Positions 37,269 through 59,884 of a DNA stretch of 64,000 nt are shown here, piece by piece. The stretch covers positions 19,833 to 83,832 of IMG/VR virus record IMGVR_UViG_3300023210_000021, one strand, 5' to 3'. The translations under genes were made by a program, and so were the position numbers. The stretch comes from a virus. The notes beneath the pieces are model-generated. The model saw nothing but the letters and a program-made list of their open reading frames with translations, made no database searches and was not told where the DNA came from. The first letter of the stretch is position 1. Each line of letters begins with the position of its first letter.

Positions 37269-37832
37269 CTACGATAATGCCTTTTCTATAATACCATAAC
37301 TTCTCATAATAGATTGTTTATAAGTTGTTCTTCTTACATCCATATCACCCTGCACAATCTTTATTAGACTTCCTTTTAAACCTGTTTTTTGTTGAACTAA
37401 TTTTTCAACTTCTTTATAAAGTTTAGGGTTTTTAGCAATTGCAATAAAAAGTGCTTCTGCAATTTCTTCTTCATCATCCCTTAACAACTGTTCAATTTTA
37501 TCATCTGATTTTGACATTTCAGATTCAAGCTCACTTGTTTGGTTTCTATATGGTACCGACCCAGGTTTACTATCAGTATCACCAAAAGCTAACACTATTG
37601 GTATTACGAATGATGCTGCAACATCAATCCAAGATGCGTTACTACCCCTCAAACCTAACGCCTTTATCAATGCATCTGCAATATCTTCCGAATCTTCGAA
37701 ATCTTCAAAATATTCATAATCTAATTCACCTAGAACTTCATCTTTAATTTTACTTAAACCTGTTTGTTCTTTAATTACTTTTCTAACAATTCTCGTTAAA
37801 TCGTTTTCTGTTAACCTTACTATTCTTTTCAT
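37269..37832 (-). CDS. leader-bearing hypothetical protein, possibly with an annexin-like repeat
   Basis: Leader MKRIVRLTENDLTRIVRKVIKEQ; helical body IADALIKALG...DEEEIAEAL...GSLIKIVQGDM. Confidence 0.6.
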   Translation of the reverse strand: MKRIVRLTENDLTRIVRKVIKEQTGLSKIKDEVLGELDYEYFEDFEDSEDIADALIKALGLRGSNASWIDVAASFVIPIVLAFGDTDSKPGSVPYRNQTSELESEMSKSDDKIEQLLRDDEEEIAEALFIAIAKNPKLYKEVEKLVQQKTGLKGSLIKIVQGDMDVRRTTYKQSIMRSYGIIEKALS

Positions 37833-37840
37833 AATAATTA

Positions 37841-38587
37841 TTAGTCTTTTTTAGGTTTAAATGTATTTCTTATGTCTGTTTCGTTGTAATCATAATCAAC
37901 CTCATCTTGTGTTAACGTATATTCTTTTTCTACTTCTTCACCACCTGTATCGTAACCTTCTCTATCTTCCCAGAAATCAGTTAACTTTACACTATACGGA
38001 AATGATTCCATTGATCTCATATTCAATTTTTCTACTGGTGTTGGGTTTCTTTGTATCACCTCTTTTTCTAATTCATCCATCTTAGAAATGATTTCATCCA
38101 TACCACCTAAACGGCTTTCTAATTCAGAAAATTTTCCCAATAAATCATCAACCTTAGAAGATACTTGTGCGGTTTCTTCTTTTGCTTCTTCTGTTTTGGT
38201 TACTATGTCAGTGACATCTACCTCAACTTGTTCTTCACCACCCATGTCATCCATTACTGGTTCTTCAGCAAATTCATTTTCTACAGGAATTTCACCACCA
38301 AAAGGATCTTCACTCATTGCTGGATCTTCCATCGGTATCTCTTCTTCACCCGCCATTGGATCTTCCATTGATGGTTCTTCAACAGGAATATCTTCTACCG
38401 GAATTTCGTCAGTAACTGGTTCTTCAACATCTGTTATTTCTTCCTCTTGTTCTTCAAGATTATCAAATAACAAATTCTCTGTCTCACCTTCTGGTTCATC
38501 ACCTTCTTCTGTAACATAAAAATTATATTCTAAAATTTGTTTATGTCTTTTAAGTTCTTCTTTTAATAATTCTTTTTTCTTATCCAT
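37841..38587 (-). CDS. acidic Pro/Glu-rich protein, possible prohead core/scaffold
   Basis: Low-complexity repeats (EIPVED, EEPSMEDP, EEIPMEDP) followed by a coiled coil; leader LLKEELKRHKQIL. Confidence 0.5.
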   Translation of the reverse strand: MDKKKELLKEELKRHKQILEYNFYVTEEGDEPEGETENLLFDNLEEQEEEITDVEEPVTDEIPVEDIPVEEPSMEDPMAGEEEIPMEDPAMSEDPFGGEIPVENEFAEEPVMDDMGGEEQVEVDVTDIVTKTEEAKEETAQVSSKVDDLLGKFSELESRLGGMDEIISKMDELEKEVIQRNPTPVEKLNMRSMESFPYSVKLTDFWEDREGYDTGGEEVEKEYTLTQDEVDYDYNETDIRNTFKPKKD

Positions 38588-38599
38588 AATTTTATATTT

Positions 38600-39607
38600 T
38601 TATAACCCATCCACACCTTTATCACTAGATTTAAATCTAATCCATGGATTAGATTTACCACCACCGATACTCGTTGAATTTCCTTTACCACTAGTAGTGA
38701 TACATTTTAATATATCAGAACGATTAATAAGATCTTTTTTACCAAATAATCTAGATAAACAAAATTTTAATTCATCACAATCAATACCTTTAAGGAAATC
38801 ACTATTGAATTTGCCACCAATACCCTTATCTGTCTTGTTTGAATCCTTTTTATCTGATTGTGTTTTTTCATCACAATCACATTTAGTATTACATAATAAT
38901 TTAGTGTAATCGTAATTATCACCTAATAATTCACAAATCTTTTTAAGTGTTTCTGCACCAACAACACCATCTACCTTTATTTTAGCATCTTTTTGAAAAC
39001 CCTGCACAGCCTTTTGTGTTTCACCTCTAAACTTACCATCACAGCTCTGATATTTCTCACTACAACCTGAGTCCATACCACCACCACTATGATCACTATT
39101 ATATGGTCCATATCCTTTCGCACCTTTAGCTAAATGATGTTGTATTAATTTCACAACATCACCTGTTGATCCATTTTTTGCGATCTTTCTCTTACATTTA
39201 ATTTCACAAACATCATCACCTTCTTGAATGATACCCTCATATGCCTCATTTAATAAGACCTTATTAGATTCTTCCATAATGTTTTTTCCTGGAAACCCAC
39301 CTAGGTGTATATCATCTCCTGTTCCCATATATTTAATGAAGTCGTTGGTGTTATCCTCATCTTCCTTTAATCTTTCATCATAATAGTCAGCGTTTTTTGT
39401 CATATCCTTATTGTATTTGACATTATCAACTAACATATAAATCATGTTATCATCACCAGTTTCCTCAACCCATTTTTTTGACTTTTCGGGGTTATCTTCA
39501 ATAAGTTTGACAACCTGATCATACAAACCACCAGAGGATTGTTCATTTAATAATGATTTATTAGCTTCTTCCATAAGAAGTCTTTTTTCTCTTGCTAATC
39601 TACCCAT
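38600..39607 (-). CDS. peptidoglycan-binding domain protein with a duplicated leader
   Basis: GSTGDVVKLIQHHL...DGKFRGETQKAVQGFQ...VDGVVGAET is a PG_binding_1-type domain. Confidence 0.75.
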   Translation of the reverse strand: MGRLAREKRLLMEEANKSLLNEQSSGGLYDQVVKLIEDNPEKSKKWVEETGDDNMIYMLVDNVKYNKDMTKNADYYDERLKEDEDNTNDFIKYMGTGDDIHLGGFPGKNIMEESNKVLLNEAYEGIIQEGDDVCEIKCKRKIAKNGSTGDVVKLIQHHLAKGAKGYGPYNSDHSGGGMDSGCSEKYQSCDGKFRGETQKAVQGFQKDAKIKVDGVVGAETLKKICELLGDNYDYTKLLCNTKCDCDEKTQSDKKDSNKTDKGIGGKFNSDFLKGIDCDELKFCLSRLFGKKDLINRSDILKCITTSGKGNSTSIGGGKSNPWIRFKSSDKGVDGL

Positions 39608-39795
39608 TACATTAATAATTGTCTACCGTCAGTTGTCTTATAAACCTTATCTACTCTTTCTACAATTTCTTTACCATCATTGATAATACATTCTTCACCA
39701 ACACACTCTTGTTCGGTATCATTTTTTGTTCCTAAAAAATCATCCAAATTGTTTTCTAATTCTTGATTCTTTTTAATATCTTTTTCGTTTAACAT
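39607..39795 (-). CDS. small hypothetical protein (62 aa)
   Basis: ATG start, preceded by a TATTTAT motif, 1-nt overlap with the next gene. Confidence 0.65.
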   Translation of the reverse strand: MLNEKDIKKNQELENNLDDFLGTKNDTEQECVGEECIINDGKEIVERVDKVYKTTDGRQLLM

Positions 39796-39840
39796 AACAT
39801 TAAATTTTATAATTGTTATTTACTAATAAATATACGATTA

Positions 39841-58432: not shown

Positions 58433-58467
58433 AGTTGTATTGTTTTAATTTTCTTTTATTCTTTATT

Positions 58468-58475
58468 TATAAATA
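58468..58475 (-). promoter_or_regulatory. putative phage late promoter TATTTATA
   Basis: Upstream of the tail tube gene. Confidence 0.55.
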
Positions 58476-58492
58476 TTTACTTTTCAGAAATA

Positions 58493-59320
58493 TTACTTTT
58501 TAATTACAATTCTTTTTTTCTTAGTGTCTTTAGGGTCTGAAGTATCATACACTAAAAACTTAATATTGGGGTATGCTTTATGTAATTCAGCTCTAATAAA
58601 CTCTTCAGCTTTAATGACATTACCTAAATCATCGTCACTAAACCCAACACTCAATCCCTCATAACCATCATCACCTTGTAATTGTTTTGCTGATTGAACA
58701 ACTCTTCTAACAAAATCTTCTAACGCAATAGTTTTTGATTTTTCTGGGTTAGCACCACCACCTGAAACATCCACACCAAACCTTTTACCGAATTCTTCTG
58801 ATGATACTGGGTGATAGTCTTGTAAATCTAAATATTGTTTAATGGTGGTACCTTTAAGGTTATCCTCCATTGTTCTTTTCTCTTCTTCACTAAACGATAA
58901 ATCAATAAGTAATTGTGTCCCATCCCTTAACGCTTTAGGTGAATTACCTCTGGCAGTTATAATTGAAAAATCGTTACCATACATTAATGCTTCTTTAAAT
59001 TTTTCAAAACTTGGTCCGAATGATTTTTCTTTTATTGCTTTTTTAATATCTAATTGAAATAGGTGATTATTTGTAAAATCTGCAAATGCTTGTTTAGCAT
59101 CATCATTTAATAGTCTATATCGACCACCTAACTCACCTCTTACCTCTGCAAATTCAGCAGTAGAAACATCAACAGGTATCCAATCATCCATACCAACTTT
59201 CTTCTCCAAATGGATATGTGTGGGCATGTTTAAAATATTATCATCCCAATCAAAAGAGTAAGCTCTTTTCTGAAACTCTAATAATAAATCGTATTGTGTT
59301 TCTGTTAGTTGTACCTTCAT
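58493..59320 (-). CDS. HAD-superfamily phosphatase-like protein with an N-terminal leader
   Basis: Motif I FDWDDNI, motif II IITARG, conserved Lys (EKSK), motif IV GFSDDD; leader MKVQLTETQYDLLLE. Confidence 0.7.
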   Translation of the reverse strand: MKVQLTETQYDLLLEFQKRAYSFDWDDNILNMPTHIHLEKKVGMDDWIPVDVSTAEFAEVRGELGGRYRLLNDDAKQAFADFTNNHLFQLDIKKAIKEKSFGPSFEKFKEALMYGNDFSIITARGNSPKALRDGTQLLIDLSFSEEEKRTMEDNLKGTTIKQYLDLQDYHPVSSEEFGKRFGVDVSGGGANPEKSKTIALEDFVRRVVQSAKQLQGDDGYEGLSVGFSDDDLGNVIKAEEFIRAELHKAYPNIKFLVYDTSDPKDTKKKRIVIKK

Positions 59321-59326
59321 AATTAT

Positions 59327-59884
59327 TTAGTTATGTGAAATCACTTTCTTAACTATTCTACTAATATCATTTTCTGTTACAAAATCTGCATAACCAGAAG
59401 TTATTTGTTTAGGTCTAATACCAAATGTATCAACCCCATTATCATTAAGTAATTGAAGGTAGTTTCTTGCATCTTTAACTGTTGATGGTAAGGATACATT
59501 ATTTCCATGTAAGTATGTCTTAATTTTATTATTTCTTTCGTCTACGAAAATATCAAACCTAAATTTTGATGTTTCACCATCATCACCCTTATTTACATCC
59601 CCCCTAAACGATAAACCATCGGGGCTAAATTCTATATTTTTAACAACATTGGTACCATAATATTGAATATCAAAAGATATGTCACCAACAATGTTTGTCC
59701 CAAAGTCACGTCCATGTGAAGCGAATCTATCACCCAATTTACTCATACCTCGTTCTCTGGCTTCACCAGCAGCCCTAGTATAAGTTTTTTTATCTAATTC
59801 ATTTATATTCTCTTCTTTAACGATTTTCTTAACTATTGATTCAATGTCGTTTGATGTCATTCTTACTATTTTTTTCATCTTCAT
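59327..59884 (-). CDS. hypothetical protein with the leader motif at both termini
   Basis: N-terminal KKIVRMTSNDIESIVKKIVKEE and C-terminal VTENDISRIVKKVI. Confidence 0.7.
   Translation of the reverse strand: MKMKKIVRMTSNDIESIVKKIVKEENINELDKKTYTRAAGEARERGMSKLGDRFASHGRDFGTNIVGDISFDIQYYGTNVVKNIEFSPDGLSFRGDVNKGDDGETSKFRFDIFVDERNNKIKTYLHGNNVSLPSTVKDARNYLQLLNDNGVDTFGIRPKQITSGYADFVTENDISRIVKKVISHN

Follow-up and report, generated by a model that had tools for sequence, protein, structure and literature searches.

Interchangeable N-terminal leaders on unrelated proteins of an uncultured T4-like jumbo phage clade: candidate capsid-targeting tags

We analysed a 64,000-nt stretch of viral DNA (the window, bases 19833-83832 of the 83,832-bp IMG/VR record IMGVR_UViG_3300023210_000021), in which a series of proteins with otherwise dissimilar bodies begin with related short leaders. 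The GC content of the genome is 32%, the minus strand carries nearly all genes, and the stretch of the record beyond the window holds further tagged or accessory genes of the same kind. The initial annotation had quoted nine such N-termini and placed them in two motifs, class A (K-[IV]-x-[LIM]-T-E-x-[DQ]-[LY]) and class B ([LI]-x-E-[EQ]-x-x-[RK]), with one looser relative. All nine are present in minus-strand open reading frames (ORFs), which start at 37832, 59884, 55626, 57855, 59320, 54965, 38587, 52440 and 39607.

When the N-termini of this genome and its relatives were clustered, eight of the nine proteins joined one of the leader classes denoted c0 to c10. Class c3 leaders are found on a 187-aa protein (37269-37832; leader residues 1-22, nt 37767-37832), whose acidic body contains one transmembrane-like segment at residues 66-84, and on a 185-aa protein (59327-59884; leader residues 1-24, nt 59813-59884), whose C-terminus repeats the motif (residues 168-185, nt 59330-59383). 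Class c0 leaders begin a 215-aa protein with five Cys residues (54979-55626; residues 1-16, nt 55579-55626), a 680-aa protein with two transmembrane-like segments at residues 423-441 and 460-478 (55813-57855; residues 1-19, nt 57799-57855), and a 275-aa HAD-like protein (58493-59320; residues 1-15, nt 59276-59320), in which the leader lies directly ahead of HAD motif I. Among the proposed class B members, the 506-aa protein starting at 54965 (53445-54965; residues 1-28, nt 54882-54965) is a strong member of class c1, and the 248-aa protein starting at 38587 (37841-38587; residues 1-20, nt 38528-38587) is a moderate, c1-like one. The 220-aa protein starting at 52440 (51778-52440) is doubtful, as it joined no class and its two orthologues in relatives start differently. 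The looser relative, a 335-aa protein (38600-39607; leader nt 39539-39607), belongs to a small class of its own, c7, and has a second, internal leader copy at residues 107-122 (nt 39242-39289) and a PG_binding_1 domain at residues 188-224 (nt 38936-39046). The 248-aa protein is very acidic (pI 4.1), with a long, repetitive middle rich in Glu, Pro and Asp, and its composition is similar to that of the acidic scaffold protein of the clade.

In the six frames of the whole 83,832-bp record, the class A pattern matched nine times. Six matches are found in real genes at a distance of 4-8 residues from the first Met (five in the window and one outside), one lies at the C-terminus of the 59327-59884 protein, and two fall in junk ORFs. 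Similarity of N-termini was measured by local alignment of residues 2-31 between protein pairs with unrelated bodies (BLASTP E >1e-3), and pairs with a score of at least 40 were counted; the controls were, in order, two internal windows, the C-terminus and shuffled N-termini. In genome G000, 7 of 1,953 pairs reached this score against 0, 1, 0 and 1 in the controls, and the relative G002 gave 31 of 4,946 pairs against 1, 0, 1 and 1. For the complete relative G005, the count was 38 of 47,254 pairs, with 6, 6, 18 and 7 in the controls. Comparison with shuffled controls was the test that the initial annotation had named beforehand, and the N-terminal similarity far exceeds that of internal, C-terminal and shuffled windows. 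As a positive control, the same analysis of T4 (NC_000866, first 135 kb, 198 ORFs) recovered the ipII/ipIII pair and the alt/alt.-1 duplication, with no overall excess (3 pairs versus 3-7 in the controls). Based on these comparisons with the controls and with T4, the leader signal in this clade is real and much larger than that in T4.

The unsupervised clustering covered 1,297 proteins from G000, G002, G005 and 78 tail-region loci, with body-related pairs excluded, and yielded seven leader classes on about 134 body families. Classes were taken as Louvain communities at score 42, since single-linkage at score 38 chained true leaders with false members. Their sizes are approximate, some false members being left (for example a methyltransferase-like protein in c3): c0 has 61 members in 30 body clusters, c1 46 in 29, c2 45 in 32, c3 39 in 24, c5 22 in 10, c7 6 in 5 and c10 4 in 4. 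Tagged genes make up about 7-20% of genes, and their proteins reach 1,322 aa. The leaders are mostly basic (pI 8-11 over the first 25 residues for most) and the bodies mostly acidic. A class A profile found 86 stretches in 82 of 1,403 proteins, 75 of the stretches beginning no later than residue ten; mis-called start codons or tandem double leaders account for several of those that begin further in. When a 35-position profile of class c3 was compared with 1.84 billion cluster representatives, 6,797 matched at E ≤1e-3 and 227 at E ≤1e-10. Of the best 150, 146 have their match starting by residue 12, and the other four are two-copy proteins. Signal peptides and lipoprotein signals were rejected as an identity for the leaders, which are charged rather than hydrophobic. 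Tandem double class c0 leaders were seen at the N-terminus of three proteins of relatives (L021:7376-9220, L022:10481-12847 and L074:12102-13676), and, by eye, a stretch in the C-terminal tail of the G002 portal protein (L199:8190-10142) is similar to the class c7 leader motif.

Leader and body behave as separate modules. The HAD-like family comprises the protein of the window and 23 orthologues, and most of these 24 aligned members bear a class c0 leader about 7 residues before motif I; the rest include one member that begins directly with the first strand, one whose N-terminus is unrelated and one with a different, c2-like leader. For the 215-aa protein, all three orthologues found bear a c1-type leader in place of the c0 leader. 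Five of the nine listed proteins have bodies without a relative in 80 tail loci. In an AlphaFold2 (AF2) model of the 275-aa HAD-like protein, the predicted local distance difference test score (pLDDT) averaged 84 and was about 90 in the body, whereas residues 1-5 and 7-16 were below 50, with a helix at residues 7-14 within the leader; the leader is therefore an add-on rather than a part of the HAD-like fold. A search with residues 1-40 of the 187-aa protein returned 25 proteins, and the 13 inspected share a near-identical 22-residue leader. Their bodies diverge straight after K-E-[EQ], so that a near-invariant leader stands on more than ten unrelated bodies. The two-copy class c3 proteins have the layout leader-body-leader-body, shorter split forms occur in the same clusters, and one body takes the first place in one two-copy protein and the last in another. 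What evolves as a unit is therefore the leader plus the body. The tags are modular and interchangeable, being present, absent or swapped among orthologues.

These results bear on whether the leaders have a common function at all. Similar N-termini could arise from a generic helix-start motif combined with A-rich and Lys-rich gene starts in an AT-rich genome, or from old paralogy with diverged bodies. MK-rich starts are indeed frequent in a genome of 32% GC, and two leaders have a peptide that often occurs within unrelated proteins. However, the signal is reproduced neither by shuffled N-termini nor by internal windows, the 22-residue leader stays near-invariant on its unrelated bodies, the class c3 profile matches are almost all N-terminal among the best 150, and a leader can be present, absent or swapped inside one orthologous family. 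We regard the lack of a common function as very improbable, and the shuffled controls, the near-invariant leader and the profile positions have already largely refuted it.

The shared element could also act on the nucleic-acid level, as a translational operator at the mRNA start or as a recombination cassette. The initial annotation had proposed that the leader may move as a DNA cassette, based on a 21/22-nt match between two class c0 leaders (55590-55611 versus 57816-57837). The match is exactly as claimed. Given the common peptide and the codon usage of the genome, however, at least 6 of 7 identical codons are expected with P ~0.10, which makes the match unremarkable. A second pair of leaders 58 kb apart is alike at 53 of 69 nt, and 13 of its 16 identical-residue codons are the same codon. 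Codon heterozygosity at conserved leader columns was 0.39, 0.36, 0.37 and 0.44 in classes c3, c0, c2 and c1, respectively, compared with 0.47, 0.34, 0.46 and 0.43 expected from codon usage. Since synonymous variation is near the codon-usage expectation, selection acts on the peptide. The cassette proposal is thus not supported: recombination may have taken place, but a mobile cassette is not needed for the spread of the leaders. An RNA- or DNA-level element was rejected because codon heterozygosity is close to expectation; the synonymous variation in these four classes has already largely refuted this alternative, and we consider it the most remote of those weighed here.

The tail genes of the window are of T4 type (sheath, tube, hub-like and wedge-like proteins), and IMG/VR contains at least 597 relatives of the tail tube, with identity up to 91%. 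Four relatives of 127-163 kb are 38-50% complete by CheckV, and G005 is a complete genome of 310,542 bp with terminal repeats. Contigs of 254-362 kb were also seen in the clade. The closest isolates share merely 33-38% identity in the sheath or capsid protein. A cultured relative was looked for and not found beyond isolate matches at this level, a near-DNA search of phage records gave no match, and a protein search with the 680-aa protein (55813-57855) likewise returned none. With the record of the window at 26% CheckV completeness, the window represents roughly one quarter of a ~300-kb T4-like jumbo phage from an uncultured clade, and the head module of this phage lies outside the record. G002, whose tube is 89% identical, encodes a large terminase and a portal together with a Peptidase_S77 protease (gene at L199:11535-12224), a scaffold of 500 aa that is very acidic, and a capsid protein of the gp23 type. 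The protease family (PF03420) was detected with E 9.2e-27 in G002, one of four records searched, all of them fragments, and the gp23-type capsid family (PF07068) in three of five records, including the complete G005. The G002 capsid protein matches solved T4 gp23 with E ~1e-27.

A T4-type head protease would leave a recognizable motif. According to PMC9026906, gp21 cuts after L/I-x-E, ten residues of the capsid-targeting sequence (CTS) are enough for packaging, several cleavage sites are possible per propeptide, and Alt is cut at its C-terminus too. T4 gp23 (NC_000866) reads L-T-E|A at E65/A66, which fits the 521- versus 456-residue chains of solved structures. IPI reads I-T-E-A and Alt begins M-E-L-I-T-E (NC_000866), the same [LI]-T-E that class A leaders keep. 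Each of the 76 capsid proteins examined has Glu with Leu, Ile or Met at -2, some 10 residues ahead of the invariant mature core and separated from it by a variable stretch; the residue after this Glu is Ala, Ser or Thr in most and Gly or Asn in few. Each of the seven leader classes has a Glu that at least 70% of its members share, and in at least 80% the residue at -2 is hydrophobic. The class c3 alignment has L12, E14, D16 and E27 invariant in 27 of 27 sequences, and the invariant L12/E14 and E27 suggest two candidate sites. The first site is frequently missing from members of the HAD-like family, and those with a leader retain the distal [LI]-x-E. Within the first 30 residues, [LI].E occurs in 210 of 223 leader proteins and 318 of 1,074 others, and in 51 of 214 at residues 61-90 of leader proteins; for [LI][TN]E, the corresponding counts are 119 of 223, 55 of 1,074 and 6 of 214. 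Both sets of counts are descriptive only, class members being mutually related. Of five records that contain the class A leader, none has a gp23 gene (0/5), and this count is uninformative because all five records are fragments of 4-48% completeness. A complex prediction with the scaffold (52-sequence alignment) and the first 40 residues of the c3 leader (27 sequences) scored 0.00 in both runs, which were made without controls, and gives no evidence either way.

Regarding the cargo, the initial annotation had labelled four of the bodies. The peptidoglycan-binding label (38600-39607) is supported by PF01471 at residues 188-224 (E 7.7e-10, 39.3 bits versus a gathering cut-off of 23), and the same PG_binding_1 domain also occurs in a c1-tagged protein of G005. 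The HAD label (58493-59320) stands on its motifs: D24, D26, T122, K196 and D229-D231 are invariant in the 24 aligned sequences, and we take them to be HAD motifs I (DxD, D24/D26), II (T/S), III (K) and IV (DD). On the other side, neither Pfam nor PHROG gave a match at E ≤0.01, and the fold matches were weak. A Foldseek search with the model returned nothing at E ≤1e-3 (best E 3.1e-3), HAD members such as MDP-1, Ceg4, Lem4 and others being among the weak matches with template-modelling scores of about 0.2-0.3. The PT-TG-like and annexin-like labels were not borne out, as such families were found in none of ten proteins (Pfam, E ≤0.01). Pfam also assigned no family to 10 leader proteins of G002. 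Three of 10 from G005 had any family, namely a weak, sub-threshold DUF1015, PG_binding_1 and PolyA_pol, and the other seven had none. The last of the three (L228:5871-7049, G005 265871-267049) is a member of the PolyA_pol/CCA-adding family (PF01743, E 2.3e-33, domain from residue 47) and carries a class c1-like leader on an N-terminal extension of about 45 residues. In two database proteins, a transmembrane-like stretch lies right behind the leader. Peptidoglycan-binding domains and transmembrane-like segments after the leader are cargo types that fit ejected proteins, for which SPN3US gp47 is a precedent (PMC5694885). Two adjacent leader-tagged paralogues of G005 (L228:4362-4907 and L228:4909-5460), of about 180 aa each, have a common glycine-rich loop right after the leader, and no Pfam family was found for either.

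We also compared the sequences upstream of the leader genes. In G005, TATTTAT[AT] was found in the 60 nt preceding 16 of 32 leader genes versus 41 of 396 other genes (Fisher P 1.5e-7), and it also stands ahead of genes for the terminase, protease, scaffold, sheath, tube, tape-measure-like protein and baseplate. This candidate promoter element gives a hint, though no proof, that leader and virion genes are co-expressed. The same motif was seen upstream of many genes of the record, for example those starting at 57855, 55626 and 52440 in the window and at genome positions 5623 and 1140.

The initial annotation had interpreted the leaders as T4-like address tags that load proteins into the head. 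The T4-type tail genes, the head module of the relatives, the hydrophobic-x-E motif and the modularity agree with that interpretation, and packaging and cleavage are the parts of it that we infer. Judging from sequence, we place slightly on the probable side the idea that the leaders are capsid-targeting, protease-trimmed tags of the T4 CTS type, employed on a far larger scale, and the eight otherwise unrelated proteins of the window are probably carried inside the virus particle. The tagged proteins would be made together with the virion proteins, and the short, mostly basic N-terminal tag, a strand followed by a helix, would bind the acidic scaffolding core of the assembling prohead. After closure of the shell, the T4-type S77 prohead protease would cut after hydrophobic-x-E inside the tag or at its end, and the cargo would stay in the head and leave with the DNA at infection.

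Because six of the eight tagged genes of the window sit between tail genes (sheath, tube and hub), the tag could instead be a docking or oligomerisation module for a destination other than the capsid interior, for example the tail, the baseplate, a site on a membrane or an assembly made by the phage, and would then not be removed by the head protease. The occurrence of the motif as a repeatable unit, with C-terminal and internal copies and with tandem double leaders in relatives, points the same way, as does the amphipathic strand-helix that the tag forms in the AF2 model (helix at residues 7-14). However, tagged genes also flank the head module in relatives, and the positions between sheath and tube hold different inserts, or none, from one relative to another, as expected for accessory insertion sites and not for tail parts. 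A docking module would also leave the conserved hydrophobic-x-E in all seven classes without a reason, and we consider it unlikely. The two-copy leader-body-leader-body proteins, together with the split forms in the same clusters, could further suggest a leader for another processing or modification system, be it a polyprotein junction that a different protease cuts or a peptide that a modifying enzyme recognizes. Against this stand the cargos, which are folded proteins of 60-1,300 aa, and the fact that no conserved partner enzyme was seen besides the S77 protease, without a systematic search for one; such a system seems quite improbable.

Several observations weigh against capsid targeting with protease trimming. 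The record of the window, at its 26% completeness, contains neither the protease nor the capsid gene, and the link to both is made via relatives only. The three tagged genes at 37269-39607 adjoin a UvsX-like gene and not virion genes. The residue after the distal leader Glu is mostly Gln or Glu, unlike the Ala, Ser or Thr at the capsid site. The motif is not strictly N-terminal, since internal and C-terminal copies exist, the C-terminal one lacking a following Glu. Many unrelated viral proteins contain the exact peptide of two leaders internally, 102 of 118 pattern matches being not N-terminal, and h-[TN]-E-x-x-[DQ]-h is a generic helix-start pattern as well. The bodies of the tagged proteins are mostly acidic, unlike T4 internal proteins, which are basic, and the load, in gene number and protein size, is large. 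In one relative, G005, the tag is found on a tRNA-repair-type enzyme of the CCA-adding/poly(A) polymerase family. The upstream motif is borderline in G002 (12 of 24 leader genes versus 25 of 89 others, P 0.052) and not significant in G000 (5 of 13 versus 17 of 58, P 0.52), and it is not virion-specific, as it also precedes a 467-aa non-virion gene.

Among known systems, the CTS of T4 IPI, IPII, IPIII and Alt, which is removed by gp21, is alike in being a short N-terminal leader with L/I-x-E on otherwise dissimilar proteins (PMC9026906, PMC3012670, PMC12373910). It also belongs to a T4-type phage with an S77 protease, a scaffold and a gp23-type capsid protein, which are known here via relatives, and the cargos in both cases are accessory and fast-changing. 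In build, the T4 CTS looks similar to the leaders (MK start, amphipathic stretch and I-x-E near residue 10), most of all to class c2, a likeness that at 10 residues carries no significance. In contrast to the one or two leader types of T4, seven classes are found here, with leaders of up to 22-28 residues and often two candidate sites, and about 7-20% of genes are tagged versus a handful in T4. The bodies here also differ in being mostly acidic and up to 1,322 aa long, the motif has internal and C-terminal copies, and the leaders of this clade are known from sequence alone. Cargo-loading peptides of encapsulins are alike in that a short address peptide puts unrelated cargo into an HK97-fold shell, but they are C-terminal, bind the shell protein itself, are not cleaved and do not involve a phage. 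The propeptides of phiKZ, 201phi2-1 and SPN3US, processed by gp21-like proteases, likewise belong to jumbo phages with many head-internal proteins, are cut after a short x-E motif at several sites each, have N-termini conserved on diverged paralogues, and include one ejection protein with a transmembrane helix behind the propeptide (PMC5694885, PMC9026906). They differ in being mostly longer than 100 residues with the motif S/A/G-x-E or A-x-E, and the accessible sections of these papers do not describe them as interchangeable short tags.

Leaders common to otherwise unrelated internal proteins have already served to find ip genes in T4 and T-even phages (PMC12373910, PMC3012670, PMC9026906), and the principle is known both there and for phiKZ-like long propeptides (PMC5694885). 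The novelty lies in the leader sequences themselves, in how many classes there are and how they interchange on orthologues, in the leader-body fusion proteins and in the scale. In a literature search that did not cover supplements, which possibly hold cleavage-site tables, such tags were not found described outside T4/T-even phages, phiKZ and SPN3US, and no paper on this phage clade was found. We further propose, as an idea that falls slightly on the doubtful side, that phages of a widespread, uncultured T4-like clade with genomes of ~300 kb direct at least a tenth of their proteome into the head by means of a small set of interchangeable N-terminal tags, with enzymes, peptidoglycan binders and membrane proteins among a cargo that spans thousands of unrelated families across metagenomes.

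The T4 CTS is a textbook phage address tag, yet it is known for a handful of proteins only, and the class c3 leader alone marks 6,797 protein clusters. If the tags work like the T4 CTS, the injected proteins of an uncultured phage group that is abundant in marine samples could be listed, and injected effectors could be read, straight from the sequence, with leader plus body as an evolutionary building block. Injected proteins are the first phage products to face host defences, and T4 Ip1-3 all block restriction enzymes (PMC12373910). A further use of the leaders would be as candidate tags to bring foreign proteins into large capsids. The finding bears on what jumbo phages carry in their heads and how this cargo is addressed, and makes the question directly testable.

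The tail module around the tagged genes contains a T4-type tail sheath (59998-62859), a tail tube (57944-58432), a baseplate hub-like protein (52614-53396; phrog_150, E 9.4e-07) and a 107-aa wedge-like protein, all with accessory genes interspersed among them; the first three are on the minus strand. A 1,719-aa protein of the same module (40872-46031, minus strand) has a C-terminal lysozyme/endolysin-like domain at residues 1528-1708 (phrog_181, E 2.6e-23) and probably acts as a hub or needle protein whose domain cuts the cell wall. A 74-aa ORF at 52481-52705 lies in a different frame and overlaps the hub-like gene at its end.

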